Shown here: piece by piece, positions 4,750 through 62,759 of the stretch
How positions within the stretch are numbered: position 1 is the stretch's first letter
How the letters are laid out: every line of letters starts with the position of its first letter
Translations under genes and position numbers: made by a program
NCBI GenBank assembly: GCA_051362555.1
Contig: CM120645.1
Coordinates: 12,896,001 to 12,960,000, forward strand
Length of the DNA: 64,000 nucleotides
Reading direction: 5' to 3'
Source: Lingula anatina
Lineage: Eukaryota; Animalia; Brachiopoda
Notes under the pieces: model-generated
Seen by the model: only the letters and a program-made list of their open reading frames with translations
What the model was told of the DNA's origin: nothing
Databases searched by the model: none

Positions 4750-5282
4750 ACGTAGTTTAGTCCCTTATCATTCCGCACAGGAGCTTGGATAAGTTACATC
4801 TCGTCCTGATATATACAGTGCCGCCGGAATCTCCCCTTACCAAATGGCCGTATGGTTTCCCAACCCTGCCCCATATGGTCGAACAATAGAGGCCGTATGA
4901 TAATTACAGGGTAGGGGAATCCCCAAGCAATCCTTATCGGACACCCAAATTAGTCGCTTCAACGAACACGGTCTGCCCCTTCTTAATTGCCTCACTTAAA
5001 GTTTCTATTATAGCTGATGCAAAGAGATTGCTATCAACACGAGCAAACAATACCGGGTTATGTATCAACTGCAACAGAAGACTCGAGTAAAGGCAAGTCA
5101 AATATTAGAACAAAACTCTGAAGAAGAAATCAGACTTTGTTTTAAAACACGTATAAAAAGTTTATTTGATGATAATAAGTCACGATCAACAAAAGCGTAG
5201 TTAAAATGGAAAATTTTAAATAGCTTATACATCAAATAAATATCAATGTCTCATTACCTTTATTACATGTGTTGCTAGTTAA

Positions 5283-5616
5283 TTAGCCTGATGCACGACC
5301 TTCTCTCTCAAGTACCGCTGGAATCATCTTCTTTAGGTGATTTATATATTTATTACTGTATAATACACTTTTCTGCGTTAATATGGTCATCTCCTCGTCT
5401 ATAACGTTCATGTGGCGCAGGTCAACCTTTGAGGGACGTCCACTTCGTGGCTTATCTGCAAGAAAGCCCTTCGTCGTATTTTTTTAACGCATAGTAAATG
5501 GCTTGTCGCGACACTGTATGGCCTTCATTTTCCATTTGTGCGGTTATGTTTTTAATTCGCACCCCTTGTTCTTGGAGGGCGATGATACGCAGACGCACGT
5601 AATCGCTAAGAGGCAT
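5283..5616 (-). pseudogene. Tc1-like transposase remnant (N-terminal HTH fused to C-terminal end, DDE core deleted)
   Basis: MPLSDYVRLRIIALQEQG..VSRQAIYYALKKY, then after a frameshift ADKPRSGRPSKV (GRP linker), then ..NKYINHLKKMIPAVLEREGRASG*, which resembles a Tc1-family C-terminus. Confidence 0.75.
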
Positions 5617-6160
5617 CTTGGAATTGTGATGATTTGGAAAATTTGATTGTCGATTTATACCGTTCACTTGGCAGGTGACACGATGGCATGGAAATCAGTG
5701 ACATAAACAGGTCATATTAAACAAAATACTTATTGGCCATTTAGGAAGTCCAGATACACAAACAATCCTGTTGACACGTGTCAGTTGATTTAGAATTATG
5801 TGCAATTGATTAGTTTGGATTGAAGAGCGTCATCGCAATGTTAACATTAATTTTAGACGACGCGTGTCAACCAGTAGTGATTATGTAATAGTCAGGGCTT
5901 AATCACTGTGTTTACCCAGCATGAATAAAGCTAACCTGGACTGATTGTTAATAAATGTGAGATGACACGTGCCAACCAGTGAAGTTAGCCCGAGAGATTG
6001 TAATCCAGTTTTTTTAAATTAATTTCTTTTGATGCGTTTAAGTATGAAGAAGGCTTTTGGTTAAGTTTGGGCTTTAGATCGTAAAGATGAACTATTCCTA
6101 TCGTTTTGAATTACATATCAAACAATGATAGAGAAACAGTTCCTACTTTTTGTCCTACAG

Positions 6161-6501
6161 AATCAAGGAATCAGTCTTTCCGCCGGCCATCCATCGCCTT
6201 GTCAAATAAAGAAATATTCGAAATTCGACAACGGGCCAGTTCCCCAGGCAACTTTTGCGTTCAGTTGATGGGAAGGTTGTTTACGATTGATGAACGAATA
6301 CGAAAGGACAGAAATGTTACGGGTGTAGATGGGAGAGATCCTATATGCAAATATAGACTGAACTATATTAAAGATATGGCTAACAAAATGTTTATCACTG
6401 AAACAACTGACAAGTATTTTTGGAAAAAATGCATTTCGTCTATGAACAAAACTAATAGAAATATAAGGACATACTATAAAAATAAAATTCAATCTTGTTA
6501 A
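6161..6501 (+). CDS. BEN-domain-like exon carried inside the Tc1-like element
   Basis: ..ASSPGNFCVQLMGRLFTIDERIRKDRNVTGVDGRDPICKYRLNYIKD..FWKKCISSMNKTNRN matches the BEN pattern (LF..EE..N..G...L....L..I...W..C...N). Acceptor tttgtcctacag ends at 6160 and AATAAA is at ~6535. Confidence 0.65.
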
Positions 6502-7629
6502 TAATATGTATATAGGAAAGACAGTTTGAAGCCTAATAAATATTACATGTACAAGTAGTGTTTTATTTGATCTTTAATAAATTCATAAATTCATTTATTA
6601 AACTCTATGTAAATTCAATCAATTCATAGCTACAATGTACACGAAAATTGCTGTCATCACCGAATCTTTTTGGTGAAGCGACTTTTAAAAATCACTGTTG
6701 GCAAGTTCTTATACTTAAAAACTCCGTATCAGAGTAGAGTGATCAAAGTAGAGTGAAGCCACCGCGCATTAAAGGTCAATTAACGCTTGGACGAACACTT
6801 AATTGCGACCACGCTCACCTTCGATCTTTATCTCAGCGAGCTAGGGTTAGGCTCTTTTGTTAGCAGAAAGTTTGTCACGATAATTGCCCGACGGGCAGGG
6901 TATGGAACTATTGTTAACAGAAACCAAACAGCGTATGGATGACAATGTTATTTCCATAGTTACCGAGCCAGGCCGTCCGTACAACCCGCAGCGACCCGGA
7001 GGGTAAGTAAGGGGAGATTCCGGCGGCACTGTATCAGCGGCTGTTGGCTGTTGTTGATTACTTTCGTTTGCTGGCATGCCAAGAGCAGTATATGCGCTGT
7101 CATTGATGTTAGCATATTCAGCCACGTTGTTATCTGTTGCCATATTGTTGGCCTCCAGTGACATATACTCGTGATCCCTATCTGCACTGTCTGGAGGACT
7201 CAAACTGTTTTGGTTCAAACCAGGGGTGTCGCTGTGATCTGTATCAGCAAACGGCTGAGAAGTGGGATTCCGTCTTCTAAATTAAAACGAAATTCAAGAA
7301 GAAAAATTCATAATAATTACCCTAAAGAGCTGTAAAACATAACATCATCATATATTTATATAAGATCATCGTTGGCTAAGATTAAATTCTAGACATTTTT
7401 AAACAGAAGCTGTTTATTTATTATTACAAAAATGCCTTGCACTTTGATTAAAGCTTTATATTTTAAGCTCTATATTATAGAATTTTGGTTTGACACTTTT
7501 ATTTGTATAATACAATATCCTATTTTAATATTCCAAGCAATATTTTCAATAAAATCGTTGAAATCCCATTTTTAGATAGTATACGGCTCATTGCAATACC
7601 CAGCTGTCAAAAAGCTATTACTGCGTCCA

Positions 7630-7850
7630 AGGGACCATTCCTACCCCATCGTAATAACTGAGGATCGATCTATCGCCAAGGGGATTCTCGCTAAAATGCA
7701 ATCAACTAAAGTGGCTTAGATGTCTGTCACGCCTACTGAAGCTGATAGGGTGTAAATAATTATCATTTAGCAGCTTTAAGCTGAAAGCAATTTAGCGAGA
7801 AACCCCTTGGGGATGGATCGATCCTGTTAGATCGATCTAGGTATGGGAAC
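7630..7850. mobile_element. MITE family with agatcgatcta core (copies also at ~29016-29211, ~30370-30745 and ~39540-40345)
   Basis: Shared inverted termini gatcgatctatc.c..ggggattctc / ccc..gggga.gatcgatc. It sits at the same intronic position in genes A and C. Confidence 0.65.
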
Positions 7851-8760
7851 CCAGTTTAACTGACCTTTTTATGACAACCACGATGACTCCCACCAAGATT
7901 AGCACCAATGCTGTTGCTATCCAGCCGCTGATGGCGACAGCCACAGGTACTTGTTCTTTCAAACATTAAAGATATTTAATTTTACAGTAGAGATAGGTTT
8001 ATAGACATATCTGTTTGACTTCATTAATTATTATATGACCAATAAAAGGTTGCATACTACATCTTTCCCATCCAGTCATTTGCTTTGTAATTCATTCATG
8101 CAAGCACCTTTCTCTTTCCTCTTTTACTGAACACGTAACGCCCCAATAATTTGATTTTACGTTTTATCACCGTTCTCCTCTCATTACCTGTCAATGCTTC
8201 TGGCGTGACTTCATTCCTTTGAATGACTGAAAAGAAATAACTTAATTCAATGTCGTTATTCAGTTTAACGTGAAAATGCAAGAAAAAGTCATATTTTGTC
8301 GGTACACATACAGTACGGACCTTCTTCTACCAAACCCAAATTGAATTTACCAGAAGGAACACAGCTCGGTAAACTCTGGTCAAATGTACCATCGGTCCGG
8401 CAATTAAGGATCATCACCGTCGACGTGTCGTTGAATTGGAAGCCGGTATTACACGTATATGTGACAGTTTGTCCTTCAAATATAACGGAACGCTGTGTTA
8501 CCTGTCTCAGGTGATCACCTACAGGAAGGATTTCACAGGTTCCTGGAAGTAAGGCAAATCTTTTCAATATATTTATATTTTCAAGTTAGTAAAATGCCCA
8601 ATAATAGCAGCAGGAATTGTACACATAAATATTACGAGGATATAATCGTTAGGTGAACATGTAGCAAACTGACGATTAAAATATAATTCAAAATCTTTCC
8701 TCAGTTTTCTATTTTGATATGTTCTTGATATCAGACTTACTGTTGCAGGTATAGGTAATA

Positions 8761-11700
8761 CAGTGGTCGGAATAATTTTGTTTCCGTTGTACACCGGTGT
8801 AACCACGTTCGAAATGTTTTAATCCCTATCTTGTGAATAGAAGGGGGCGGACAAACAATGGAGGGCCGTATAAATCCCTTCAAAATTCGAACGCACAAAC
8901 ACAATAGCTTAGGTGGAATAACACAATACTTAATACGTGTGAACCCCATGACGCCGGTTTCTGTGGCCCAGCGCGAGCGTGACAATCCGCTGTAACTAGG
9001 TGTAATTAACAGCAGGATACATCAGCCAGAAGGTCCCTATTGTTTGTTGCGGCGATAGGATTATAGCTTGAAGAGGCTAAACCCATGCTAAGGCGTGCCA
9101 CGCGAAGCGAACTGTCCTTTTGTTCACTAGTTTGGCACGCGCAGCTGGTTTTTAGTGTTGCTAACTAACTGCTAGTTAAATTTGTTATCAGTTATTTCAT
9201 CCTATATGAAATTTCCGCAGTCAAAACTTGAACTCATTATTGTTTGTTTGGTTGAAATGCATGAGCGTCAGCATCAATCTGTCTCAAAAAATTCCTATTG
9301 CATTAATTTATAAATGTATAATTTATTTATGTACTTACGTTTTAATTTGAAATATCTGCATTCAAGCGTTCAAGTATTTATAAAACATGAATGATAATGA
9401 AAGAGGAATAAGGAAATAACATATTACTTATATTATGCTTATATTATAATATTGAAATTAAATGAGGTGCATTGACATAGGCGCAATGACAATCCAACTA
9501 CAACGTGCAACAGGGGGAAGTCTGGCTGTATGATCATACAATATACGAAAGTACGGTCAATTAAAAGTGTAAATCATCAGTTAAATAGGAGGGGGTCTTA
9601 CTATGGTCGCTATCTATTGTTAAACCCGACTGTTATTGTCTCTCGAACAAGCTTAAAGCATGCCTATACAATTACTGTGTCTCCGGCTGCCGTTCAGAAA
9701 CACCATGTCGAACGTATTTTGCTACAGTGAGAAACATGGTACACTAGCGACTTGTTTTAGATCACTCAAGAAAGGATGCATACGTGCGACACCAGAGGAA
9801 AAACAATCAAGTATGCGTCTGATCCATTAATAGTAATTGCACAGTGCATGTTACTAGACCTTTGTCCTAACTCAGTAGTTAGGAATAGGATGTTTGGATA
9901 AAAAGCTTCTATTCAACTCGCTTAGACCTAGGGCGTGATGCTATCATCCGATGAAACACGTAACTGCACCCTCTACCTGAACCTGAAGTCCCTTTACCTG
10001 AAACAAAAACTGCCCCTTGAACATGTCCATTTTTTAATCGTCAAATGATTTGTGATTTCATTGAACGTCTTTGATCGAAAGCTTTCAAGTGACAATAACC
10101 GAACCATGTGTTGATTATTTATTAAAGCGTACTTAAGTTTATTCAACATGATCTATTTTGTAAACGATACTTGCCAAGATTGAGCTTGGATTGATCACCG
10201 TCACTATTTAGCTACTCGCCTATAATGCTTGCTGAACGACAGACAACTTAAAAATATTATCTGTGTAACTGTGCAAATGCAAATGTTAAAATATAACAAA
10301 GCCGGCATCTAATCCATCGAACATATTTATATTTGTTCTTTTTAAACCAGTGTAAGGGTAACGCCAAATCAAAGCAAGCCTTGCAGACTGGTTTTGTTTA
10401 AACTGTCGTGCATCAAGTAAAGCTAAGTAAAGCCTGTTTCTACTTCGCAGTGTTCATCCCAGCCATAAAACTGCATGAAGGATAACAAGACTCCGTAGAC
10501 CTGTGCTTCAGGTTTCCAGGAGTCCCGTGTAACACAATAATATCGAAGACCTGAGAGTAATACATATATGAGGCCGTGTATGAAAGATTTAACAAATTAG
10601 AAATTCAAGAATTTAAACATGCTAGGTACATGCACATCACTTAATAAGTCATTTCACAAAAATCGCATCTAATTGTTTAAATTAACCTTTACTTTTATCG
10701 ATCTCATCCCATTGTCTCAACCACCTAAAAGAAATATAGAGAACATGAGGAAAAGTAACACGTTTACATGCAGGCGAAGGAGTTATACTTCAATATTAAT
10801 CGCGAACAACATCAACAGCGACTAAAGACCGTTGCCTGTCTTTCACACTTTTACACAAACACACGAAGGTTTAATAAAGGGAGTCGCGGCGCGATATCTA
10901 CAGGTATCTCTTTCATTCGAACAAGCAAAGGGCTGACCCGAAGTAAGCTTTCTATACTAATGTCCTTTTTATTGTGTATTGTAATTACTCTACTTGCTCG
11001 CCTCCATTGTCTTGTAAAAGTGACAAAGAATGTGTTGTATTCACACACGAGATGAAAGAACTCCTTTACCTTAAGTTGCATAATGTCTTTCTCAAGGTTA
11101 TAATCAGTGTGAAGAGGGTGTCTTGCCTCATTTAAAAAGGGTGTTGTTCTTCATACTGGTTGTTGCTTAACTTATGCTAATCTTAAACTTTTATGTACCA
11201 ATATGGTTTTAATAAATCGCTAAAATTATTAATTTAATGAACATTGTGTATCAAACGTTTTGATACGATTTAAATAAATGGACGAGGAGGATTACGGTAT
11301 TAGGTTCTATTTACCTCTGGCTTTAACTTCGCCCTGCTATATAAATGAACAAATGTTGCAGATCGTAACAAAAAACTTTCTTATAGTGTTTTATGACATA
11401 TATGATTTACACATTTGATAGTGAAACACTCCTCGACTTTAACGAATCACCTGACGTAAACTGTCTACCCGCGCTCCCCGAAAAAAACTGTTTCTTTTAA
11501 TTTTGAAATGAATTCCTTTTAAGGCAAAGAAGTCCATTAAACCCTTTAGTCTCAATATCATTGTACAGCATGTTGTAATCGATATTTAAAAAAGTTAATT
11601 TTTGTACTCCGCTTTCATCGAGGATACCTCAAGTTGAGGTTACAATTACGTCGCTCGCCTATGCTACTGGAATATATATTTAAGGACAAATTAAGCTTTG

Positions 11701-13147
11701 TAAAGTCCCTATTGTCACACACCATAGATACTTTATTTTGTCTTGAATGAAAAAATAGCCTCAAATTATCGTTTTGTGCTTAAACCTTTCATTACTTGAA
11801 CCAAGATCTGTACTATAGCTACCAAGACGTACATGCATCAAGTTGGGTCTGCTGGGGGAGGGGAGCATTTAAATGATAAACGAGGAAGTCTACCTGCAAA
11901 AGCAGCAGCAGTGGTTTAAATAATCGCTATCTAGACTCCTTTTTCTTTGACAGCAACATAAAAAGTGTTTAGGGAGAAAGTCACACAAAGACCCGACGTT
12001 GTTTTGTCTTCAGCATTTCCTCTTCCTTGTTATCTGCAATTACTATCGTCAATTAATGAAATCGAGAAAGCAATTAAGTGACGGCACATTGAATATAGTC
12101 ACTAGGTGCATTTCGCTGAGTGTTTACAAGATCTAGCGACACATTTTATCGCCACGCGTTCTAGTTTGATTAGTTTAGAAAATTAAACAGTTACTCTGTC
12201 GGCTCTCCGTCATTGCTATGAATCTGACATCGAATTTAGTCCAAAATATTAGTAAATTCAGAATTATTAGCTAAAACGTAAATTGCTCTAATTTGTCAGA
12301 TAATCAAAAATGCCGGTGATCCACGCGGAGGGTACGCTTTCCTGAAGGTAGCGGCGACGAACGGCGACGATATTTTTCTGAATAGTGAACCTTTATTAGT
12401 TACGAAAAGCCCCCTTTTCAACAGGCGCGTTTTATTAATTACTTCATGTCACAAAGTTAATTTATACAGGCAAAACTTTATTTTAAGGAAATAGTTTCAC
12501 GAAATGAACGAGAGTAAAATATTAGTCGGCACAAATATAAGGCATACAACAATGAGTCATGTTATGGATCATGTTATGGGCCATGTCGGATTATAATGGC
12601 ATACCTTGATGCAAAACAGTCTATCGTTTCTTCCACCGCGAGTCCCTTTATTTAATGTAATGTATTACTCATTACCCGTTTCATTTGACACTCTCTCTTT
12701 TTATCTCCCTTCCCCTTTCTCTTGTTAGAAGGAGGGTACATAATTAAGCACTCAAAATCTGCACCACCAATCTTCAGAAAAACAGAAGTCAACGAACCAG
12801 TGGGCTGATCCACAACATCTGACACAGCAGAATGAATCAAATAACAGCTAGCACTAATTTATATGCAGTTAGCTATAGTGTCACTACATACATAATCAGC
12901 TGCACGCGCGAAGCTGTTGAACAAAAGGATAGTTCGCTACGGGAGACCGTTTGTTTACATAAGTACTCTAAGGGGGCGTGGCTACCCAGGCGACCAAGGG
13001 ATTAGGCTAGTTACTATATGCCGTCAACAATCGTTTAGCGACCCTATCATTATACACTCTCTCTATTGTATTTTCCACCGCATTAATCGCAGTGTAATCT
13101 TCAAATGGTCCACGGGGTAAATGTACACATTCTTAATCCGAGTACGG
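8761..13147. mobile_element. 4.4-kb insertion with TA TSD and imperfect TIRs splitting the second sushi exon of gene A
   Basis: The target ggaagcaaTAttacctat (compare gene C ggaaggaatattacctat) is duplicated TA at 8759-8760 and 13148-13149. Ends CAGTGGTCGGAATAA vs CCGTACTCGGATTAA match at 11/15. Confidence 0.75.
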
Positions 13148-13689
13148 TATTGCTTCCAAATCTGTAACCTGTTGCTGGAGAGGGAGCCGCATTGGGAAAA
13201 GTTGGGGCATTGCATTTCCGGTAAATGACAAATGCGGTGCCCACTCAACGTCACACCTCTGCTGATCAGTCTTACCTGAAATCCCTCTTTCAGCCAGGCT
13301 AGGGAGACATTTTATGTGGTGGGAGGCGTCTTGCTGGAACCGCTTTCCATCTCCATATATCCGTCTGCATCGTCCCCATGACGCTCAAAACTTCCTCACC
13401 ACTGCCACTGTCGGACATTTTCGTCTTTGAAGCAGGAAGCGTGACGTTGAAGTCGGCAGCACATTCACCGTACATGAACCCCCAATTTTGTATCTGTGGC
13501 TGTATCTTAGGGATAATGGGATAATGTGTACTAGAAAACCTTCAACCGATTGTTGAACTGAAGGCGGCAATCACAGGTAAAATCAAAGAAAATCCCCAAA
13601 GAGGAATGTGTTCCAATACATGTATTGGCAATTTTGCGCGACGTACGCAAGTATGCCTCCAACGCTGCGGTGGCCATTTGGAGGATATT

Positions 13690-14193
13690 TTTGAAAGAAC
13701 ACGCAAAATATCTGTTAATGAAAGTCACACAATCAGAAATGAAGACTATTGCAAAAATGCGGATTAGTGACCACGAATTAGAAATTGAACGTGGCCGCTA
13801 TACGTCCCCTAAAACCCCTATTGAAAATCGCAAGTGCCCCCACTGTAATGAAATTGAAACGGAAATCCACTTCCTACTGAAATGTGAAGAACATTGTGAC
13901 AGAAGAAGTTGACTAATGATACCTCCTGAGCAGAAATCAGATCATGAAAAAATTCAGTGGCTGCTCAGTCCAAAAAGTGAATCGTGCTTGAGAACATTAC
14001 ATCTATATATAACTGAAAGTTTGAAAAAACGACACACCAATCAATAGCAATAAGCATTTTATTCTGTGCTGCTTCCCAGTAATCATTCCATAAGTATTTG
14101 TATAGATTTTTATAATTGTTATTAAGATGTTGTGACTAGTGTAGAGAGCCTGTAAAATATGTAACATGTACACATTTTAGTTGCTCAATAAAG

Positions 14194-14225
<32 letters not shown>

Positions 14226-14226
14226 T
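13690..14226 (+). mobile_element. Non-LTR retrotransposon 3' end (5'-truncated LINE)
   Basis: The ORF MRISDHELEIERGRY..RKCPHCNEIETEIHFLLKC is the typical CCHC-type ORF2 C-terminus of RTE-X/related LINEs. It is followed by AATAAA and an (ATTT)n tail at ~14196-14226. Confidence 0.8.
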
Positions 14227-15864
14227 ATAAACGCTTGCAGCAAATTTGCATTAATAAACTACTTCATATATACAAGGTTGGTTAGTTACGTTATACTCAT
14301 GTAGCCAGTGAAATAAACTACGTACATGTACACTGTGTAGGTGACGCTTGAACCTTCATCTAAATTATACGGGGTTACAAAAAACAATGGAAAACAAGGT
14401 CCACTTACAATCAGAACACTGGTCACCAGTACGTCCCAGGTTACAAACACACTTCTCTGAAGATATCTGTGTCTCTGAGGTGTATGGTCTCACACACGTT
14501 CCGCCTATAGAGCAGGCCGGGCAGTTGTAGGCGGGATTACCTGATGGTGAAGAAATCGTGAGGTTGGCTATATTGTTGATGCATTATTTGAGGTAAATAT
14601 TTTTAGTAGACAGTTTCTGAAAGGTGTTGTGACACACCACAACCACGGCACTGCAAGTGCTAGTAATAATACATTTCAGTTTTGGACATTGTGTCTAATT
14701 TTACTAATTAATACCCATCTGGTAACCATCCACAATGATTTAAACACAAACAAATAAATGATACAACCTTAACATTAGAAATCGTCACGATTTGCATCTT
14801 ACCAGGACATTGTTTCATTTGATAGTGACAAACATTGGTTACAAATCTTGATCTATTGCACGACGTAGAACTGTCATGGAACCAGCACCACCTTCCATCC
14901 CAGTCCACTGCCTCACATGTTGGGTCATCGTTACAGGCCTGTAAACAGCGGGAAAGTGACAAAAAAATCTTCGGCTTGCCTCCACTGACGGACCTTTTCT
15001 CGTACACATATAACACGTACTCTGGTAGTGAAATGAAATGCTTCAGAAATGATACTCTGCATGAAATATCCGTACTTACATGTTCAATACATAGTGAATC
15101 CGAGGTGTGCATCATACATTAAACTCGTATGGAATTCAAAGTCCCATAATATATGCATTGATAACAATACATAGAATAATTTGATAATTGTATTTTGCCA
15201 CCAAAACGGCGGTTATCGCAATTATTCTGAAATCTGTGCTTGACATCGGACCACTGTGGCTACCCTCCGTAATAATCTCTTTAGAAAGTTTTTTAAAAAA
15301 AGCACTTAAAATAAAAACAACAGACAATTTTGTATGTCAGAACGTATGTCTTAACCATTGGTTAGTACGGAAAACTGTCGTTTATCCCAGAAAAATTCCG
15401 TTCTACGTTACTTTTCCCGCAAAAATGAACAGTTTTTACCACTTTAAGATAATGTTTATTTTAAGTTCAATACAACCGTATGAAAATTCGAATTTGCATC
15501 CTTGTGGTCAGTATAGCCCGGATACTGGTCAATGATAAAAAATGGTGATATTCCATTTAAAACGGTGATACTAAGTGGTTTTAGATGGAAATTACTAGCG
15601 AAGAAAGTAATCCACAGAGACAAAAATACTCACTTCCACATACTGGCGGTTCTTTATCAAAAACGTCCTCTCTGTCAGAACACGTGATTGTAAGAGAACC
15701 GTATATATGGATATATGGAGGAGTAACACACGTGTAGGTAACACTTTGGTGACTGTTAACACGGACAGCAGTTGGAGATCGACTTGAATGTGGAACGTCT
15801 GGCACGACACATCCTACAGTACGAAATACGCAAGTGGTCAAAACACTTATTCTTTGCACAGGTC

Positions 15865-16147
15865 CCGCACAAAAACGAAGTAGATACTCCAGCGCAGTAG
15901 ACTACGGCAATCATACTGTAAACATGCTTCAAATCTGCTTCGATGTGGGAGCTAATTAGCATATTTGAAACATGCTTCTATCATGCTGCTAATCTACTGC
16001 ATTAATGCTCCTCCTCTGTACAACCCTATGTAATTTTTGAAGTAGAATTGCAGTAGGCTATACTACATTTCTACTGCAAATATGCTCCACACCTCTACTG
16101 CGTTAATGCTTCTTTGCTACTTCGATACTACTGCATTTTCATGCGGG
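15865..16147. mobile_element. Degenerate MITE in intron 1 of gene A
   Basis: Ends cccgcacaaaaacgaagtag / ctactgcattttcatgcggg, with internal ctactgc repeats. Confidence 0.5.
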
Positions 16148-16549
16148 GTGTCTCATTCATTAATAGTTATCTCGTTTTTCTAATTCATTATATAACGATC
16201 TTACAAGAGTGCATACAAATGTATTTGGTTTTCTACAAAAGACATTCATAATTTTGCAAATGATTTTATTTGGAGTTAAATAATTTTATATTTACATAAA
16301 TAAATATCCTCTTTTCATCGATGTTAACTACTATAAGTGTGACCAGAAACAACCTACCTGCGTCAGTTCCACGTAGGTCAATGACCAAACTGTATATACA
16401 GAAAAATACACACAGTTGTAACAATTCCTTCATTGTGGCCACTCTTGTCCTAAAATGAGGTTAGTTGACATGAGTGTGACATAAATATACATACCTAGGG
16501 ATGTTATGTGACCGTGGTGATATGATGATCACTGAAGCCTGTCCATTTA

Positions 16550-23334: not shown

Positions 23335-23381
<47 letters not shown>

Positions 23382-49724: not shown

Positions 49725-49755
<31 letters not shown>

Positions 49756-52700
49756 ATAGAATGCGCGACATGAGACAAAAGAGGAAAACATTCTCCATTC
49801 GTTTGCCCTGCATATTACAATAAAAACATCATTTTCTACTGATTTATGTATTTTAGCAGATGCAAGGCGAAGCACTCTTCATTCATTTCCCCTCCCCCTT
49901 TTACATCTTACCAAAATCCTGGATCATACAGCGCATGCGTTTACTTACTTCAAAAGTTCAATTATTTTGCATGGTAGTTACTATGTTGAGTCTGACTAGA
50001 AAGGGAAGTGGTTGCGGCAACAGAATTTACGAAATAGTTATCCCCGCCAATAAACGGGTTTTATGAAACTACCTTGTATTTTCATTACGTTATGTTTGTG
50101 ACTGGTGATTTTATTTATCTGCGATACTCTGTCTGCCGAACACTGGTGATACTCAGATTCTATAATTTCTAGAAGGCAATGCATTCGCAAAAAATGGGAT
50201 TAGATTGTACCTTTATCTTACCCAGTCACATAGTAGACATGATTTATATCTTTTACTTTTTTGTACACCCAGTAAAGCACTAATTGACGTTGAAAGCCTA
50301 ATGACATTACTTTCACAGGGTTATTCAACTTCTACCTTCGGGCCTGATTTTGATATACAAGAAAATAGTCTACGTTGACATATTTCTTACATCTTAAAAA
50401 GTGTAAAATTCAAAAATAAAACTAATTATTCATCATTTTGTATTGAAGGTTGTGTCGTGCCTAACGTTCCTCATTCGAGACGAACTCCAACTGCTGTCCG
50501 TGTGAACAGTCACCAAAGTGTTACCTACACGTGTGTTACTCCTCGATATCTCCAAATATACGGTTCTCTTACAATCACGTGCACTGACAGAGAGAATGCG
50601 TTTGATAGGGAACCGCCAGTATGTGGATGTGAGTATTCCTATTTTGTGGATATTGTGCTGGAGAATACTACCGAATAAAAAAAAGGTTTTCTTTAATAAT
50701 TTTCTTGAATATGATGTGGAATATTTTATCTACAATGCATTGTGTAGAACTGTGGAAACCGTGAAGGCAACTACCCTGTAACTCTAACCTCAAACATATA
50801 TATTTCTGAAAATCTTCTGTTTCAGTGCCAGAGTACGTGTTGTATGCATATGAAAATATAAGCATCAGCGGAGGCTCGCGGAACAGTTATTGGCCACTAT
50901 CCCGCTGTTTACAGGCCTGTAACGAAGACCCAGCATGTGAGGCAGTGGACTGGGATGGAAGGTGTTGGTTTCTTTACAGTTCATCGTCGTGCAATGGATT
51001 AAGATTTGTAAGCAACGTTCGTCACTATCAAATGAAACAATGTCCTGGTAAGATGCAAATCGAAATGATTTTTAGTTCACCATTTTATTTAGATATTTAT
51101 TTATTTATTTATTTTATTTCATTAATTTTTCTTTTTGCATATTATCTCATGGAAGTGAATGGGAGGCCTAAGTAAAGTAAGTTAAAGTATTGAGAAAGTA
51201 AAAATGACGTCCGTGTGTCATAGAATACGGTCAATATCTTTGAAATACACCCAACACCATTTAGAAATGAGCTATACTTACGTAATCACAAATACTCGTT
51301 AATTATCCAGCAGCTTCCTTTATTAGCTAAGAAGTTACCAAAGACTCGATTTGCTTACATCAGGTAATCCCGCCTACAACTGCCCCTGCTCTACTGGAGG
51401 AACGTGTACAAGAACATATACCTCATGGACACAGATATCTTCACAAATACAGGTACCTTCAGAGGAGTGTGTGTGTAACCTGGGACGTACTGGTGACCAG
51501 TGTCTTGGTTGTGAGTGGGACTTTGGTTTTTATTGTTATTTGTCACACTACATAATTGAGATCGAATCCGAGCATCGCCTGTACAAAAGGTGCGTCCATG
51601 TAGTTTATTGTATCGGCTACATGAATATGTGTCTGAAAATGTTACGCCTTAGACAGAAAAATGTGATGCCAACTACATGTATTTACGAAAACCCTTACAC
51701 ATGTTTCAAAATTAAACAGCATATGCATACACGTGGATCACACAAATGGTCCCCTCTTGAAATTAGAATTTTGAATATCTGAATCATAGTTACATGTATA
51801 AAATGTACCAAATGGCATCGTTTGCCTTTTAAAATACCAAAAAAATTCGGGGCACGCTGAAGGGGAGGGGGGCGTCGGCTTCGCATAAGCAGACCCCCCT
51901 TCAAATAATCCTGGATCCGCCTCTTAAGATATCGCTATTACATTTATCATGAACGTCTTCTAATACAAATAAAATTAATAAATAATACATTAAATGTAAG
52001 GGGAAATCATCAATATATAAGTTTTTTGTGCAACCAAGTGGTTACTATTGCGACTGATGGATTTCTTTACAGATATGCACTTTGTTTTTAGATGTGAAAT
52101 GCAATACTCCGACTTTTCCCAATGCAGCCCCCTCTCCAGTACCTGGAGGTTACATATTTAAAAGCACTGTTACCTATACTTGTAACAGTGGGTATCAACT
52201 CAGAGATGGTTCTGGTAACAGTTTCACACTGACTTGCGGTCCTAGAGGAACGTTTGAAGGGGAGAGAAAAACATGCAACAGTAAGTCAAAAAGACAACAA
52301 TGTTACAAAATAAGAACAGATTAATAATTCGAAATGAAATAGTCGGCTGCAGGTTGGCCCTTATTACGATTATGCTTCTGGGGATAATTATTGTCGGTGT
52401 TATTAGGCTTTGAATATACTCAAGTGAAATGAAGATATTAAAAAATTACTCCACTTCCAGGAACCTGTGACCTTCCTGTAAGTGATCACCTGAGACAGGT
52501 AACACAGCGTTCCGTTACCTTTGAAGGACAAACTGCCACATATACATGCGTCACTGGCTTTCAATTCAACGACGCGTCAACAGTAAAGAACCTAACTTGT
52601 CAAGCCGATGGTACATTTGATCAGAGTTTGCCTAGCTGTGTTCCCATATCGTGTGCATTTCCTACCAGTAAATTAAACTTGAAGACAGTAGAAGGACCAT

Positions 52701-54015
52701 ATGTTTACATGCAGAATGTGACGTTTTCTTGCATTCCTGGATATCATTTCGCTGGTTATGACGTCGACGCGCCATTTACGTCACAATGCATCGCTACTGA
52801 AACTCTGGAACCGCCAATACCTGACTGCATAAAAAGAACATGTGTTTTACCTCATTTAAACAACACGGTAGTGAGATCTCAAAGAGAGGATCTGTTCTTC
52901 ATGACATCAGCTGAATTCAAATGCATGCAAGGATTTCGATTCCCGGATGGTAATACCAGTATAACCTTGATATGTGATGAAACTGGTGGATTTGGGGTGG
53001 ATTCTCTGAGTTGTACAGGTACGTATTAAGGGATGTGTATAGTGGGTGTCCTCTTGGATCCCCATGCAGATTGACTTGGTCAGACAGGTGTCTTCAATTA
53101 AAAACATTGCCCACTATAATACAATGATGCTCTGGGTACGTGTGATCCTGTATAATGCTGTTATAGTTTTTGTTGAAATACTTTTTGCTACATATTAGGT
53201 TACTTGTTACATTTGTGTCACGTTTGTATTTATATTCATAAAATGATTAAATGATAAACCACTTGACGTATTTTCATACGAAATATAAGGTTTATTTTCG
53301 TGGAAAATTTGCTATCTAGTAAGGCAAAAAAGAAAAATGATTGATAATTTTTTTTCAATTTTGCCATTCAGAGACGTTGCCTGAAGCTGGTGCCAAGGCA
53401 GGATCCGCAGACCCTAACATTGGTGTCAGTGTTGGTGTGGGCGTTACTGGAGCGATAGTGTTGATATTAATTGCTGTTATAATTGTTGTATTCATCAAAT
53501 GTAGACGGTTAGTGGTGTAGTACCATTAAAATCTTGTTTTATGTATTTCTATCAAAAATAGCGATAGAGGGTTTGTGTATAATAAAAGGGAGATGTTTAT
53601 GACATCTGTGATTGAAAACTTGACGTGTGATATATTATAGCAGTATAAACGCAACATGTCACACGAATATTCCTCCTCCCTATCGTTCTTCCTTCAACCC
53701 ACTTGCTGATAATTAGTAAATGTGAACTATTGTATTTTGTTTCTATTCAGAAAACAATGCTACGCTTCCCAGTCGTCCAAGGCCGTTAACGCTGATCTAA
53801 GCGGCACCTCAGAGTTATACCAAAACAGTTTGAGTCCGCCAGACAGTGCTGAGCGCGAGTATATGTCACTGGAGGCCAATACTATGGCAACAGTTAGCAG
53901 CGTGGCTGAATATGCCAACGTCAATGACAGCACATATACTGCTCTTTGCATGTCAGCAAACGAAGCCAAACAACGACATCCAACAGCTGCTGGTGTATAT
54001 CAGAACGAAGTGTAA
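49550..54015 (+). CDS. Gene E: sushi-PAN-EGF-4x sushi-TM receptor with class I tail, ~590 aa
   Basis: Exons 49550-49625, 50449-50628, 50826-51047, 51364-51510, 52092-52280, 52461-53018, 53372-53507 and 53751-54015 (tail ELYQNS..EYMSL..EYANV..STYTAL..VYQNEV*). All are GT-AG and the frame is open. Confidence 0.88.
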
Positions 54016-55877
54016 AAATTAAGAACTTACATTCACGCATAACTTACATGTGTGCATTTTAATGTTAAAACATCCCCCTTCAAACTATTAAATAAAGAAG
54101 TTAACAATCATTATATTATTGTGACCAAGGAGTGGTAAGAGGTGAATATTTTTAAAAAAATTTAACAACAGATGGATGATATATCTTTGCTCACTATCAT
54201 AAACTGAGACCAACAAAGAAGGTTCCGTTGAAATATCCAATGATTGCATCTCCCAGAATATCTTTCTCGTCATTGAGTAGAACATTTCCAGCAGAATAAT
54301 GTTGTATAATAATACATCCAAGAACCTAATGAAGCTGTGCCACAGAATTACATGGATAGTGAAGGATGGATGGTACATATATATATGGCGATGAAGGATC
54401 GAGTTCAATCTAAACGTGACAAATAATGTTTATGATATAATTGAGTTACATACTTTAAAAAGTTTTCTTTGTCATATTTGGGTAACCTATTTTTATCATT
54501 GTGCTTATGATGTGGGTTACGTCAAAAACATTCTTCGTCAAGTTCATATTGACCCCTTTCATCTTTATATATTATCTTATATCATCCACCACTTTTAGTT
54601 CTTGCACTTCTCAGACAGGTTCTGCTCCGTTAGTTCCCTTAATGTATTATATCCTGAATAAAAAATTTGGAAAAAAAACATCTTCATGTCACGCTTGCAT
54701 GTCCTCCAAGGCAAGAAAATCAAGCGGTTGACGGACGTCTTCAATTTGCTATTTTACCAAATACTTGTATATGTGGGCCTATGCAACATTTTGAACAATT
54801 CTGTATAATAATTAAACATAAACATGCTGAAATATATAATTTTATTATCAAATATAGTTCGTAGGGTTGATGTACTTTTAAAAAGAGATATCAAAACCCA
54901 AATCACAAAAGACGAGCAACCGACTGTGTATCATGATTAAGGAGGTAGGGGTAAATTTTGACGTGTAGGTGACCAATCTGAAGTCAAGGTGCGTATTATA
55001 TTATACCAAAAGAAGGTCAACAATAAAAGTTATTTTTATGTATCAAACTTGCCATTCAGATGAAGCATATTAAGTGCGTGAAATAAAATATGGGTCAGCT
55101 CTAAACGATTTTGAGTAAAATGGGCCTATTTTTCACGTTTTTATGAGACATGATGGTTAAACTGGTTTTATATTGTAATTTATGGATAGAAAAATAGAGA
55201 AATGCAATTTTCGAAGCCTTTGGTACGTCAAGAGGGGCAAATGCCACGAAACATATGCAAAAAAGATGCTAAAAATATGTAATTTTCAAATATCTTAAAC
55301 TTCAGAGGGTATGTACAGGGGGGTAAAGGGGTTTTAAAATTCTTTAAAAAGCACTGTTATATCTTTTAAGATTCATTACAAAATGTTCAGGGAAGTACAA
55401 AAAGTAAGCACTGTCCCCCCCCCCCCCCCCCCCATATTGCGCAGATTTAACTCAATAAGGAAGTACGTCGCATGCTTTTTACTTCAATGTGAACTCGATT
55501 CACATCCACTACGTACGCACACGGTAAATATACGTCTGTTGTAAATTAACAATTGAGATGGTGTGATGCTATTACAATATTTAAATCCACTGAAGGTACA
55601 AATTAAGACAAAAGAAAAAAACGGCTTACGCAAGGAAAAGTGTGAAAATAGTATGTGCTCTGACTGCTCTCAAAGAAAAGTACCTGTAAAGAACATTAAG
55701 CTGTTGCATTAAAATTTAAACTTTTTATCATCAACTTCTGCAATGTGAACAAACAACAGTGCGATATCTTCATATATTACAGGGCAGTGTCAACAGAGGT
55801 TGGTACCATTGTTATTCGTGTTTAGCTTTCCCCCCTAAGCAGCTTTGTTGTTAACACGGAGCTACACCGTGCTTGGT

Positions 55878-56160
55878 GTAAAATATAAAATGGGTCACTT
55901 CCTTGTTCACAAAACTCCGCAGATACGCACCTAGGCCTCGCCACACTTTTACAAGCCTTCCTTATCTTTTTAAGGTCATTCAACAGAGAGAAATTTGGCT
56001 ATAGGAGAACTAGGGTTAGTATAATACCGGTTACATGTACATGTGCTATATTCAGTTCATGTAAGGAGCAGAAAAGGGAAGATGTTCGGAAAGCATTGAT
56101 GTAGATTGATCAGGATTGAATCGTGTCTTTGATAGTGTATGAGTGCCTAGGCAGGTAAGT
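55878..56160 (+). promoter_or_regulatory. Putative promoter/5' UTR exon of gene F
   Basis: tataaaatgggtcacttccttg and donor cag|gtaagt at 56154. Confidence 0.5.
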
Positions 56161-57574
56161 GTAAATGTTTTGTACAGTAAGTGACATGTTCTATTTAGCC
56201 TGAACCGTATTTCTCTCAAATTTTACCGACGTTATAAGGCCTACGGTGTATGTACATGTATACTAATTAGAGACCGCGTCATTACGATTTGTCACCAGCC
56301 TACAGTACCTGTGGCAGAAGGGCGACACAACGATTAGATTGTCTTCTCTGGTGAGACATCTTAATAACACGACTTAAAGGCAGGGGGTGGAGATACCAGT
56401 ACAACCTAGGTTTATAAATTAAAGCCTTTTTACTGTGAGCGTTATGTCTTGTACCCGTTTTCAAATAGGGTAGTATACGGACTGGACCTGTTCAATTTAA
56501 TATATAGGTTCTAAATTGTATTTTCGGTACGGGTTTTTTTTTTTTTTTTTTTTTTTTACTCTCTTTCATCAGCCTACCCACAAGTTCAATTCCTACTGTT
56601 AAGGGGGAGGGGAATGGAGTTTAGGTGACTCTTATACGAAATAGACAAGCTATCAAATTGCTTAAAACATACTGGTACAGGTGAGTCGCTTTAAAAATGT
56701 CTTTGATTTGGCAGTGGTGGCTTTGAAAACAAATGACCATGGAGGACGAACACTCTTTGAAAAAGATCGGTCCGTCTGTTTGTTTTTTAAGTTTGTCTGT
56801 TACATGTAGCACTGTACAGGTCGCAGTTTTGATCAAATCACTTCCATTTTCCCTGAAGGGGTACAGTGTATCCAAACAAGTATGTGACAGGACGTTTTTG
56901 GGGTCATTCGGTGCATTTTCACGTGAGAAGTAGCAATAAGATGCTCTACTTCTGGAAGTGCAAAAGCTCTTGCTTGTTGCATTTTGTAGATCATGTCAAG
57001 CGCAACACTGATATGTGGCGTCCGTTTTTCCCCAAACGCTTTAGGAGATGCGCTATTTTAAAAAAGTATACGTCGCAATGTTCAGTGGTGAGCAATGGTG
57101 GAAATTATATCACCAGAACCGGCACATATATCCCCTGAGTACTATATTACACTGAATTTGAATAGGAACTCATATATTGACAATCCTACTGTGACCTTGA
57201 ATTTGACCTTTGACTTTCTTTTCACCATGGCCTGAACATTCCAGCCCTTATATTTCCAAAACTGGCAAAGGTACTACCATTATCACACATGTTACTTATC
57301 ACATTTATGCATACAATTACACTTGTATGATAGCAATACGAATAAGAAGTCACACATGAGCTTTTATTTAAGTATCTTCAAGATCACATCCGAATCCGCT
57401 TGTTTTTTCTGTCTTTTTATATTGCTCTTATTGTCGGTGGTTGTTTCATAAGTGTTTACACGTCAGTGTGATTTTTCATTTTATTGTTTATATGCCGTTT
57501 ATTAAATAATGTATTTACCTATTTATTCAGCTATTTATTTATTACATAAAGCTGTACATAGTAAGTGTTTGTTT

Positions 57575-57785: not shown

Positions 57786-60700
57786 ATGATGGAAGGACTG
57801 TCGAGCATTTTAAGATCATCTCTGATATTTTGTTTACTTCGTGGATGGCAAGGAAGCCAAGCAAGTAAGTGGAACCAGGTACTTTGTACGTGTACGCCCT
57901 TTCTCCTCTCCCAACTCTACTCCCCCATCCCCCATCTCCCCAAAAAATAATTAAATAAATAAAATGCGCGACAGGAGACAAAAGAAGAACACATTCTCCA
58001 TTCGTGTGCCCTGCATATTTCAATAAGCATCCTTCTCTACTGAATTATGTGGTTTAGCAGATGCAAGGCGAACCACTCTTCATTCATTTCCCCGCCCCCT
58101 TTTACATCTCTCAAAATCCTGGATCATACAGTGCATGCGTTTACTTATTTCAAAAATTTAAGATTGTTGTCTTTTTGCATGGTAGTTACTATGTTGAGTT
58201 TGACTAAAAACCGTTGTCACCCAGAATTTCTCCTGGGAATCGAAGTGGTTTCGGCACCAGGATTTACGAAATAGTTTTCCCCGCCAATAAACGGGTTTTA
58301 TGTAACTATTTTCATTACGTTATGTTTGTGACTGGTGACTTTATTTATCTGCGATACTCTGTCTGCCGAACACTGGTGATTCTCAGATACTATAATTTCT
58401 AAAAGGCAATGCATACGCAAAAAATAGGATTAGATTGTACGTTTATCTTACCCAGTCACATAGATGACATAGTTTATATCGTTTACTTTTTTGTACACCC
58501 AGTAAAGCACTAAATGACGTTGAAAGCCTAAAGACATTACTTTCACAGGGTTATTCAACTTCTACCTTCGGGCCTGATTTTGAAAAACAAGAAAAATAGT
58601 CTACGTTGACATATTTCTTACATCTTTAAAAGTGGAAAATTCAAAATTGAAACCAATTATTCATCATTTTGAATTACAGGTTGTGTAGTGCCTAACGTTC
58701 CTCATTCGAGACGAACTCCAGCTGCTGTCCGTGTGAACAGTCACCAAAGTGTTATCTACACGTGTGTTACTCCTCCATATATCCATATATACGGTTCTCT
58801 TACAATTACGTGTACTGACAGAGAGGATGTGTTTGATAGGGAACCGCCAGTATGTGGATGTGAGTATTCCCATGTTGTGGATATTGTGCTGGAGATTACT
58901 ACTGAATAAAAAACAAAGGTTTTCTTTAATAATTTTTTTGAATATGATGTGGAATATTTTATCTACAATGCATTGTGTAGAACTGCATGTGGAAACCGTG
59001 AAGGCAACTAACTCTAACCTCAAACATATATATTTCTGAAAATCTTCTGTTTCAGTGCCAGAGTACGTGTTGTATGCATATGAAAATATAAGCATCAGCG
59101 GAGGCTTACAGAACAGTTATTGGCCATTATCCCGCTGTTTACAGGCCTGTAACGAAGACCCAGCATGTGAGGCGGTGGACTGGGATGGAAGGTGTTGGTT
59201 TCTTTACAGTTCTTCGTCGTGCAATGGATTAAGATTTGTAAGCAACGTTCGTCACTATCAAATGAAACAATGTCCTGGTAAGATGCAAATCGAAATGATT
59301 TTTTAGTTCACCATTTTATTAAGATATTTATTTATTTATTTATTTATTTATTTTATTTCATTAATTTTTCTTTTTGCATATTATCTCATGGAAGTGAATG
59401 GGAGGCCTAAGTAAAGTAAGTTAAAGTATTGAGAAAGTAAAAATGACGTCGGTGTGTCATAGAATACGGTCAATATCTATGAAATACACCCAACACCATT
59501 TAGAAATTACCTACTTACGTAATCACAAATACTCGTTAATAATCCAGCAGCTTCCTTTATTACCTAAGAAATTACCAAAGACTCGATTTGTTTCCATCAG
59601 GTAATCCCGCCTACAACTGCCCTTGCTCTACTGGAGGAACGTGTATAAGAACATACACCTCATGGACACAGATACCAGTATTTTCACAGGAGTGTGTGTG
59701 TAACCTGGGACGTAATGGTTACCAGTGTCTTGGTTGTAAGTGGGACTTTGGTTTTTATTGTTATTTGTCACACTACATAATTGAGATCGAATCCAAGCAT
59801 CGCCTGTACAAAAGGTGTGTCCATGTAGTTTATTTTATCGGCTACACGAATATGTGTCTGAAAATGTTACGCCTTAGATAGAAAAATGGTTGCAAACTAT
59901 TTATAAAAATCCTTACAACTGTTTCAAAATTAAACAGCATACACATGGACTACACGAATGGTCCCCTCTTGAAATTAGAATTTTGACTAGCTGAATCATA
60001 GTTATAAAATATACCAAATTCCACCGTTTGCCTTTTAAAATACCAAATAATTTCGGGGCCCTTCAGCGTGCCCCGAACCACACGCCAAGGGGAGGGGGGC
60101 GTCGGCTTCGCATAAGCGGACCCCCCTTCAAATAATCCTGGATCCGCCCTGAAAGATATCACTATTGCATTTATCATGAAGATCTTATAATACAAATGAA
60201 ATTAATAAATAATACATTAAATGTAAGGGGAAATCATCAATATAGTATAAGGTTCTTTGTGCAGCCAAGTGGTCACTATTGCGACTGATGGATTTCTTTA
60301 CAGACATGCACTTTGTTTTTAGTTGTGGAATGCACTGCTCCGACTTTTCCCAATGCAGCTCCCTCTCCAGTACCTGGAGGTTACAGATTTAATAGCACTG
60401 TTACCTATACTTGTAACAGTGGGTATCAACTCAGAGATGGTTCTGGTAACAGTTTCACACTGACTTGCGGTCCTCGAGGAACGTTTAAAGGGGAGAGAAA
60501 AAAATGCAACAGTAAGTCAAAAAGACATCAATGTTACAAAATAAGAACAGATTAATAATTCGAAATGAAATAGTCGCCTGCAGGTTGGCCCTTATTACGA
60601 TTATGCTTCTGGGGATAATTATTGTCGGTGTTATCAGGCTTTGAATATACTCAAGTGAAATGAAGATATTAAAAAATTACTCCACTTCCAGGAACCTGTG

Positions 60701-62759
60701 ACCTTCCTGTAAGTGATCACCTGAGACAGGTAACACAGCGTTCCGTTACCTTTGAAGGACAAACTGTCACATATACATGCGACACTGGCTTTCAGTTCAA
60801 CAAAACGTCAACAGTAAAAAACCTAACTTGTCAAGCCGATGGTACATTTGATCAGAGTTTGCCTAGCTGTGTTCCCATATCGTGTGCTTTTCCTACCAGT
60901 AAATTAAACTTGAAGGCAGTAGAAGGACCTTATGTTTACATGCAGAATGTGACATTTTCTTGCATTCCTGGATATCATTTCGCTGGTTATGACGTCGACG
61001 CGCCATTTACGTCACAATGCATTGCGGCTGAAACTCTGGAACCGCCAATACCTGACTGCATAAAAAGAACATGTACTTTACCTCATTTAAACAACACGGT
61101 GGCGAGGGCTGAAAGTAAGGGTCTATTCTTTATGACATCAGTTGAGTTCAAATGCAGACAGGGATTTCAATTCCCGGATGGTAATACCAGTGTAACCTTG
61201 ACGTGTGATGAAACTGGTGGATTTGGGGTGGATAATCTTAATTGTACAGGTAAGAGTTTAAACTGTGGATTTGGGGTGGATAATCTTAATTGTACAGGTA
61301 AGAGATTAAGGAATATTTATTAAGTATTTAAGTACTAGTACTTAGAGAATCAGAATAATGAGCGCCTTGTCCGCTTTTACAAAGCAGACTGAAGGATGTG
61401 TGATTCTGTGAAAAACTTATTACTTTTCTTAAATATTGTTTGCTGTGTGTAAAGTTACATAGCTCTTGGCGACTACGTACTATTAATACAGGTTTTGTGT
61501 GCAGAGATGGAAAGGTATTCTAAAAACTGATTAAAGAGTTGATTTATAAATACTTTCAATAGAAGTTTGTTAGTCGTGAATACTATTGGGAATTATTGTA
61601 ATATAGTTGACCTTTTTTCAGGCAATATTTACTTATAAAGAAACTTAGCTATCTAGTGGAGTATATAAAATAGTTAAAGCCTACCTAACTATTTCATTTT
61701 TATCATTCAGCGGCACTGCCTGAGGCTGGTAACCAAGCAGCATCCACAGGCCCTAACATTGGTGTCAGTGTCGGGGTGGGCGTAACTGGAGCGATAGTGC
61801 TGATATTACTTGTTGTTATAGTTGTTGTATTCGTCAAACGTAGACGGTAAGTGGCAGCAAACCATACTGAGATGTTTCATTTCACTTTTGTTAAAGGTAA
61901 TGATAGGACTGGGTCTCACCAATACCATATAACCATATAATTAAGACATTTCCTTTGATGTTTGACCTTTTATGCATTTGATGCACATTGATGATGTCAT
62001 TTAAATGTATTTATATCCGTCCTGATCTATAAATTCGGTTGTTAGATTTGTTTTTACTTAAATATTGATATTCTACTCATCGTTTGTTTTTAGCCGGCAG
62101 GCTCATAATGGGCACAGTTCTTACTTGAAGAGTTGCAGTGTCTATTTTTTATTCGATTGATACATTTATTTATCTATTTTGCCTTCAATGGATTAATTAG
62201 TAAATGGAACGTTTTTCGTTTCAGGAAACAGATGTCAAACTCACATGAAGATATCGATGTATCAAGCAACGGAAAGCTCAGCAGCACAATGTACACAACA
62301 TCCAATACTCATGTTGACACAAATCTGTACGAACTCGAGGGAGAATGTCCAATGGCAGGCCGGTATGATCAGTCAAATAATATGAGACAGAATTCTAATT
62401 ACGAAAACCAGGCCTCTGATTCACAGATGAACGTACAGGATCTATATGCCTTGCCTGACAAATCCAAAAAGACCAAAAAAGGCAAGAAGCAACAAAATAC
62501 TCCTGCAAGCTATCCAGACGATGCGTATGAATATGTCAGCAAACCTTCTGTCCAGGCTTCTTCCGTTTCAAGACAGGATTGTAGTAGCACCTATGAACTT
62601 GCAGGGCAGTTTCAAAATGGAGGCTATACCCAGTCTATCGATGATGTTGATGACGTGGAGTTTGTTGAAAACGATATTTATGAAGCAGGAGGCGTTGACA
62701 ACATGGGCCATACATGTGTTGAGTCAGTTGAAAACGACATTTATAATTCGTCAGTGTAA
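57786..62759 (+). CDS. Gene F: sushi-PAN-EGF-4x sushi-TM receptor with class II tail, ~677 aa
   Basis: Exons 57786-57864, 58680-58859, 59056-59277, 59601-59735, 60323-60511, 60692-61249 (alternative donor 61297), 61711-61846 and 62225-62759 (tail ..DLYALPDK..VENDIYE..VENDIYNSSV*). Frame is open. Confidence 0.87.
61217..61304 (+). repeat. 48-bp tandem duplication of the exon end and splice donor in gene F
   Basis: gtggatttggggtggataatcttaattgtacaggtaagag occurs twice, 48 nt apart. Confidence 0.9.

Follow-up and report, generated by a model that had tools for sequence, protein, structure and literature searches.

A tandem cluster of PAN-EGF-sushi surface receptor genes with two unrelated classes of cytoplasmic tail in the brachiopod Lingula anatina

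The 64,000-nucleotide stretch of the Lingula anatina genome analysed here (GenBank assembly GCA_051362555.1, contig CM120645.1, positions 12,896,001 to 12,960,000 of the forward strand; hereafter the window, in whose own numbering all positions are given) holds six paralogous receptor genes, A to F, in tandem at 4794..62759. They were delineated by six-frame reading, self-BLAST and exon-by-exon modelling by hand, and all six have the same order of parts: a signal peptide, a first complement control protein (CCP, or sushi) domain designated CCP1, a PAN domain, an EGF domain, two or four further CCPs, a transmembrane (TM) segment and a cytoplasmic tail. As modelled, two CCPs follow the EGF domain in A and C, which lie on the minus strand, and four in B, D, E and F, which lie on the plus strand. 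Throughout the modelled ectodomains, every exon begins in phase 1 and preserves the reading frame. A preliminary description of this DNA had proposed six clustered paralogues of this number, position and domain order, some intact and some broken, and the exon models bear it out: B, C, E and F are open whilst A and D are broken.

Splice sites were picked from the sequence and GT-AG borders, present in 36 of 36 modelled introns of B to F, were part of that choice. Independent backing of the junctions comes from the L. anatina RefSeq models labelled P0001, P0002 and P0009 (P0019, P0020 and P0030, below, are further such labels), which agree with the exon models wherever the two overlap. No RNA splice joints were seen among the 15 of 92 joint rows listed, all of which came from repeats in a DNA run.

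Copy B (22577..28116, plus strand; 662 amino acids) encodes CCP1, PAN, EGF, four CCPs, TM and a tail of the class called tail 1 below, in exons 22577-22652, 23710-23889, 24447-24665, 24970-25098, 25686-25874, 26057-26614, 26965-27109 and 27624-28116. Copy E (49550..54015, plus strand; 590 amino acids) joins a long ectodomain to tail 2, which resembles a tail carrying an ITIM (an inhibitory, tyrosine-based motif of immunoreceptors), in exons 49550-49625, 50449-50628, 50826-51047, 51364-51510, 52092-52280, 52461-53018, 53372-53507 and 53751-54015. Copy F (57786..62759, plus strand; 677 amino acids) has a long ectodomain nearly identical to that of E joined to tail 1, in exons 57786-57864, 58680-58859, 59056-59277, 59601-59735, 60323-60511, 60692-61249, 61711-61846 and 62225-62759. 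Copy C (29810..37523, minus strand; 462 amino acids) encodes CCP1, PAN, EGF, two CCPs, a stalk, TM and tail 2, in exons 37523-37448, 37189-37010, 34743-34525, 34298-34170, 32375-32187, 31993-31787, 31119-31081, 30851-30761 and 30068-29810. The modelled ectodomain of C contains 25 cysteines (an odd number; compare 31787-31993), one of which is possibly free for dimerisation. Its second intron (~34750-37000) carries about 2 kb of extra sequence with 25-nt inverted arms (36362-36386 and 36804-36828), likely to consist of mobile elements.

Copy D (40822..45832, plus strand), with a long ectodomain and an internally duplicated tail 2, is broken in the present haplotype by an in-frame stop (TGA, near 42630) within the PAN exon and by a 1-nt frameshift near 45681, in the second tail repeat. 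Copy A (4794..16433, minus strand) is broken by insertions. Its recognisable parts are the signal (16433-16358), CCP1 (15813-15634), PAN (15021-14803), EGF (14540-14409), remnants of CCP2 near 13216-13151 and 8760-8739, CCP3 (8542-8351), stalk (8226-8188), TM (7955-7865) and tail 2 (7276-7035), with the last codons near 4794. The CCP2 exon is interrupted by a ~4.4 kb insertion (8761..13150) and is partially deleted. The tail exon has received, at a TA, a 2.2 kb insertion (4813..7034) whose ends form perfect inverted repeats of 28 nt; this is likely to be a non-autonomous Tc1/mariner-type element, and within it 5455-5616 gives a weak paired-box/helix-turn-helix match (E 0.0075). Rescue of copy A by skipping of CCP2 was ruled out, as a stop at the EGF/CCP3 junction limits the product to 202 amino acids.

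Upstream of F lies a conserved non-coding block (55596..56178, plus strand) that recurs 5' of B (20023-20612), D (38401-39113) and E (47750-48290) and is likely to be a promoter or 5' untranslated exon; reads from RNA run X17 (see below) are present inside it at 56007-56057. A/B (16433-20023) and C/D (37523-38401) are head-to-head pairs, in each of which a minus-strand gene with a short ectodomain faces a long plus-strand gene. Only about 1 kb separates C from the conserved block of D, and the two could share a promoter.

Domains were assigned by a Pfam scan of ten stretches of the window, together with profile and structure comparisons. In the ten-stretch scan CCP2 and CCP3-5 passed the Sushi cut-off, with no Pfam match in the CCP1 stretch, the two tails or two other open reading frames. 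CCP1 itself gives a weak Sushi match in five of the six copies (best E 0.0042) and aligns with the other CCPs by hhalign (77.6%, E 1.9e-5); its profile found no meaningful match in the PDB. The EGF assignment is likewise weak (EGF_2, E 0.023, under the Pfam cut-off) and PAN_1 on the E exon scores 14.9 bits, below the gathering cut-off of 21.4. The PAN exon of F was modelled from a 24-sequence alignment with a predicted local distance difference test score (pLDDT) of 93.8. Its top Foldseek rows are the plasminogen and HGF N domains, apple domain 5 of MIC4 and factor XI; these PAN/apple rows have TMq of ~0.6-0.7, none reaching E<=0.001. By sequence, the PDB entry that the PAN profile matches best is an apple domain of Toxoplasma MIC4 (E 6e-4). 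At the level of the structural model, the head domain is thus confirmed as a PAN/apple fold. The exon models and the fold model agree with the description of the locus as a birth-and-death cluster of PAN-containing type I receptors.

Pfam scans of the exons and of the RefSeq models detected neither a Lectin_C nor an Ig domain. The family had been called selectin-like, and it does share with selectins a binding head, a single (weakly matched) EGF domain, CCP repeats and a TM segment. Selectins also form a tandem gene cluster. They have short cytoplasmic tails, however, whereas the Lingula proteins have a PAN head, one further CCP at the N-terminus and tyrosine-rich tails 85-177 residues long. 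Membership of the selectins therefore failed, on the missing C-type lectin head and the tail length, and the term holds as an analogy only. SVEP1 (polydom) is a very large secreted protein with vWA and pentraxin domains; identity with it also failed, the Lingula proteins matching Pfam Sushi only, being 460-700 amino acids long and possessing a TM segment.

Two tail classes and a shared ectodomain

The tails, 85-177 amino acids long, fall into two unrelated classes: tail 1, found in B, F and P0009, and tail 2, found in A, C, D, E, P0001 and P0002. Likeness is 84-87% within tail 1 and 55-78% within tail 2 (four compared), against 17-31% across the classes. Tail 2 carries three YxxL/V/I motifs (YMSL, YANV/I and SxYTAL/YTVL), whose tyrosines are invariant in all four window copies while the flanks drift, and D, P0001, P0002 and P0019 each hold two copies of the three-tyrosine unit. 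The motifs of tail 1 are YAVP/YALP (YxxP), YEYV and NDIY (NxxY). A broad ITIM consensus is present in six of six tail-2 sequences and in none of three tail-1 sequences, and YxxL/I/V counts exceed those of shuffled sequences in all four tail-2 sequences tested (p 0.03 to <0.001; A and D left out) and again in none of the three tail-1 sequences. The tyrosine motifs noted in the preliminary description are thus present, but their treatment as one kind overlooked two unrelated classes.

The ectodomains tell a different story from the tails. Between E and F the nucleotide difference is 3% in PAN, 4-8% in CCP1, EGF and CCP2-4, and 14-15% in CCP5 and TM; the tails are 21% identical over 87 residues. 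Only two PAN residues differ, at codons 17-18. Sliding identity delimits an E-like tract in F, introns included, at 58080..61100 (plus strand; 1-11% difference per 200 nt), and the similarity collapses in CCP5, TM and tail. Around the CCP2 exon F also contains a B-like tract (59810..60600, plus strand; 2-8% difference from B), CCP2 differing by 2% between B and F whilst PAN differs by 19%. In the quartet B/D/E/F, the genealogy favoured by informative sites changes from one part of the gene to another (19 runs in 55 sites, p=0.0002). These comparisons show gene conversion between the ectodomains. Modules are also shuffled beyond the window: in the RefSeq model P0009 tail 1 follows a short ectodomain, and in P0020 an A/C-type TM follows a CCP5-like end. 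These combinations may in part be modelling artefacts.

Near-identical ectodomains on unrelated tails in E and F, together with the conflicting genealogies of the exons, make up the pattern of paired receptors, which are defined as linked genes whose ectodomains undergo conversion whilst the tails diverge (PMC13358205, available in part). Judged on this genomic pattern, the chances seem to us about even that the cluster encodes surface receptors of the Lingula lineage, type I in topology, that act as paired recognition receptors.

The same parts could serve in adhesion or in endocytosis and scavenging, with PAN binding glycans and the YxxL/V motifs acting as sorting or internalisation signals. 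Most of the motifs fit the generic YxxL/V pattern only, and the EGF-CCP stalk would be rod-like as in selectins, which are also the structure rows returned by the Atlas (TM-score only 0.40-0.43). MIC4, whose apple domain is the best PDB match to the PAN profile, is an adhesin. This reading leaves unexplained why an ectodomain should be carried on two unrelated long tails, why the three-tyrosine unit should be doubled and why a paralogue should bear a tail with the immunoreceptor tyrosine-based activation motif (ITAM) consensus, and we consider it rather unlikely.

Relatives and transcripts

Close relatives were found in L. anatina only. A search with the CCP3-5 exon returned 18 proteins; identity is 76-85% for three models from L. 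anatina and 24-40% for the remainder, which are generic sushi proteins. The PAN profile had two matches and the tail-2 profile four, all in L. anatina, and these matches place the window itself in Lingula, probably in L. anatina in the broad sense. A PAN+EGF profile run against 1.84 billion representative proteins gave 62 hits. By Pfam, PAN was present in 56 of these and Sushi in two, and only P0001 and P0030, both from L. anatina, combined sushi domains with a TM segment. P0030 has the order PAN-EGF-5 CCP-TM and an ITAM-consensus tail; as it shares the arrangement at 24-28% identity, the arrangement belongs to an older Lingula superfamily. Among relatives of PAN that bear names, the nearest (P0021, P0024, P0025 and P0028) come from two annelids, Owenia and Capitella, and are multi-PAN proteins. 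A lead from the Atlas (score under 0.9), a mostly molluscan PAN/Sushi cluster of 87 members and 184 amino acids, suggests that the pairing of PAN with sushi is itself probably not exclusive to Lingula. No named gene with this architecture emerged, as had been anticipated, and the protein searches, in which a conserved single-copy orthologue was looked for, returned none.

In RefSeq the same family includes XP_013399600.1 and XP_013384001.1 (both 'SVEP1-like') and the partial or fused, uncharacterised models XP_013383993.1, XP_013415512.1 and XP_013415543.1. XP_013388999.1 (also 'SVEP1-like') is a distant paralogue, 24-28% identical over the ectodomain, with a signal and another N-terminal module; the other models lack a signal and most or all of CCP1. 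The 'SVEP1-like' labels are automatic names derived from sushi similarity. In P0019 (XP_013415512.1) a YqaJ-like recombinase domain is fused to a family TM and tail 2, probably through the mis-joining of a mobile-element gene. The relatives are spread over four contigs, and both tail classes are present in the RefSeq individual too. Overall identity between RefSeq models and window copies is at most about 80%, and RefSeq PAN domains are 50-76% identical to any window copy, hinting at a turnover of the repertoire, as far as can be read from a fragmentary annotation.

No paper describing the family was found in the literature searched, which excluded most subscription papers and supplements. One published context would be the shell, in which the proteins would act as shell-matrix or mantle biomineralisation receptors: shell proteomes of Lingula or of phosphate mineralisers include Sushi, EGF and PAN among their listed domains (PMC13425148, in the part available). 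These are membrane receptors with signalling tails, however, and five family accessions were absent from the literature searched, supplements excluded; such a role is scarcely probable.

Three RNA runs (X11, X14 and X17, of nine listed) and one DNA run, each sampled at ~6-25%, were mapped on 43400-63300. Transcripts of the family are present in one of the three. In X17, exon bins of D, E and F are covered: 38 reads lie over the F TM, 50 over tail 1 and 11 over the E TM, and depth is zero in F intron 1; X11 and X14, from which similar numbers of letters were read, have 0-4 reads at those sites. High-copy repeats at 56977-57237, 59952-60140, 63258-63300 and 51737-51900 dominate depth in all four runs. 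Of the 2689 mapped X17 reads (repeats included), 2445 are 90-95% alike to the window; their source is thus either a diverged individual or paralogues, and they are not assignable to one copy. The extra base at the D frameshift (45681) is found in four of nine X17 reads and in one contig of X2, which is identical to the window over a number of non-coding stretches and is perhaps not independent of it. The divergence of the reads is about the size of the reported distance between L. anatina populations, 0.0759 (PMC13425148, available in part), and population divergence therefore confounds it.

A further reading is allorecognition or gamete recognition, in which binding would be allele-specific. 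Lingula is a solitary animal, and we know of no fusion or rejection reaction in it. Precedents are found in Hydractinia, where Alr paralogues bear SxYxxL motifs (bioRxiv 2022.03.25.485889, available in part), and in Botryllus (fester/FcoR), where clustered receptors with sushi domains have ITIM-like partners (PMC12582321, likewise available in part); the head-to-head A/B and C/D genes also fit. The Pfam scans, however, detected no Ig domain, and the read likeness of mostly 90-95% is confounded, as above, by paralogues and populations. The preliminary description had favoured an immune or allorecognition system, and the latter, which we regard as very improbable, receives no direct support from these data; paired inhibitory and activating receptors are the better analogy.

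Selection and the proposed paired recognition

Among the domains, PAN diverges most (mean identity 0.69, against 0.73-0.85 elsewhere), with two variable segments. Site model M2a is preferred over M1a in PAN (2dL 10.4, p=0.006; a value reached in none of 48 null simulations), also when the four intact copies alone are used (p=0.019). Positive selection on PAN, resting as it does on two codons, is suggestive, not strong. Positive selection overall was rejected, mean dN/dS (the ratio of nonsynonymous to synonymous substitution rates) being below 1.

Under paired recognition, the predicted ligand of the PAN/apple head is a glycan or a protein, and the head would be borne on an EGF-sushi stalk. Ligand binding would cluster the receptor and a Src-family kinase might phosphorylate the tail. 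Through its motifs YMSL, YANV/I and SxYTAL/YTVL, tail 2 would then bring in an SH2 phosphatase that damps the response, and adaptors attracted by tail 1 (YAVP/YALP, YEYV, NDIY) would set off a cytoskeletal or activating one. Ligand specificity would stay matched between the opposite tails through gene conversion and unequal crossing-over, while a short segment of the PAN surface diversifies. The most likely setting would be innate recognition by coelomocytes or epithelia. An oyster receptor has been reported to signal from ITIM to SHIP2 (PMC11841013, available in part).

Several observations weigh against paired recognition. In the tails, the strict ITIM consensus is found in only two of six tail-2 sequences (C and P0002), and the single broad ITIM of E is within chance (p=0.18). 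None of the nine tails contains an ITAM, hemITAM or immunoreceptor tyrosine-based switch motif (ITSM), and none of A to F has a charged TM residue, which makes the activating role of tail 1 a guess. YxxL/V motifs fit endocytic sorting signals as well. Tandem paralogues convert whatever their function, F may be just a recent E/B recombinant, and the runs test on the triplet of F versus B and E was not significant (p=0.085). As to selection, mean dN/dS is 0.24-0.98 over all ten segments, the PAN signal is gone when codons 17-18 are removed (p=0.46), that of EGF (p=0.01) comes from one codon, and CCP1-5, five of the seven domains, give no signal; the site models were run in our own implementation, which takes no account of recombination.

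Some of these points would be expected of a neutral tandem array of redundant developmental or housekeeping receptors, in which unequal crossing-over would bring about duplication, conversion and tail swapping as side effects. Two of the six copies are broken, overall dN/dS is below 1, the selection signal rests on two codons and the read divergence of other individuals equals that reported between populations. Neutrality does not readily account, however, for tail tyrosines that stay invariant while their flanks drift, for the retention of both tail classes in the RefSeq individual or for RefSeq PAN domains only 50-76% identical to any window copy, and we regard it as improbable.

Paired recognition finds its closest working counterparts in receptor pairs of the Siglec/PILR type, which likewise have linked genes, homogenised ectodomains and divergent tails, one of them ITIM-type (PMC13358205, in its available part); in Lingula tail 2, by its broad consensus, is the candidate for the ITIM-type tail. 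The Lingula scaffold differs in being PAN-EGF-CCP rather than Ig or C-type lectin and, unlike a classical activating partner, tail 1 is long, has tyrosines of its own and follows a TM segment without a charge for a DAP12-type adaptor. Botryllus Fester/FcoR and Hydractinia Alr resemble the cluster as invertebrate surface-receptor clusters with ITIM-like, ITAM-like or core YxxI/L/V motifs; fester includes a sushi domain, and the Fester and Alr clusters show copy-number turnover (PMC12582321; bioRxiv 2022.03.25.485889; both available in part). These are, however, Ig-superfamily receptors of colonial animals with mapped allorecognition, whereas no Ig domain was detected in the Lingula proteins. 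Among lophotrochozoans, the PTC2 and GRC clusters of Biomphalaria also comprise divergent single-pass TM genes with structural variation and have been mapped to parasite resistance (PMC7494358, available in part), a likeness by description only.

A bolder version, which we hold tentatively and think doubtful as a whole, is that brachiopods independently evolved paired inhibitory and activating receptors on a PAN-EGF-sushi scaffold, the head being kept identical by conversion across ITIM-type and adaptor-type tails, an older paralogue supplying the ITAM and the repertoire turning over between individuals under pathogen pressure. If true, this would be a non-Ig, non-C-type-lectin counterpart of KIR and Siglec pairs in a lophotrochozoan. 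Paired receptors are known mainly from the Ig and C-type lectin families (PMC13358205, as far as available), and meeting their genomic signature on a PAN/sushi scaffold would show a brake-and-go design to be one that can arise on any binding module. The cluster would offer a small, concrete and testable entry to immunity in a little-studied phylum, and the misleading 'SVEP1-like' names are corrected. Were the function only adhesion or endocytosis, the interest would be the more modest one of a lineage-specific domain arrangement.

Possible splice forms and the left flank

The last base of the EGF exon is T and the first two of the CCP3 exon are GA in every copy (computed for A and read from the sequence for the others), so that skipping of CCP2 would yield a stop and possibly a secreted CCP-PAN-EGF form of ~200 amino acids. 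A possible internal splice donor lies after CCP3 in the long genes, at ~26255 (B), 44045 (D), 52655 (E) and 60890 (F); it matches the modelled donor of C and the end of the P0009 ectodomain, and the long genes may thus also be spliced to short forms. At the left edge of the window, 11-598 is ~80% alike, in the same orientation, to the spacer between B and C (28546-29369), a resemblance which suggests that a further B-like gene may sit just to the left.

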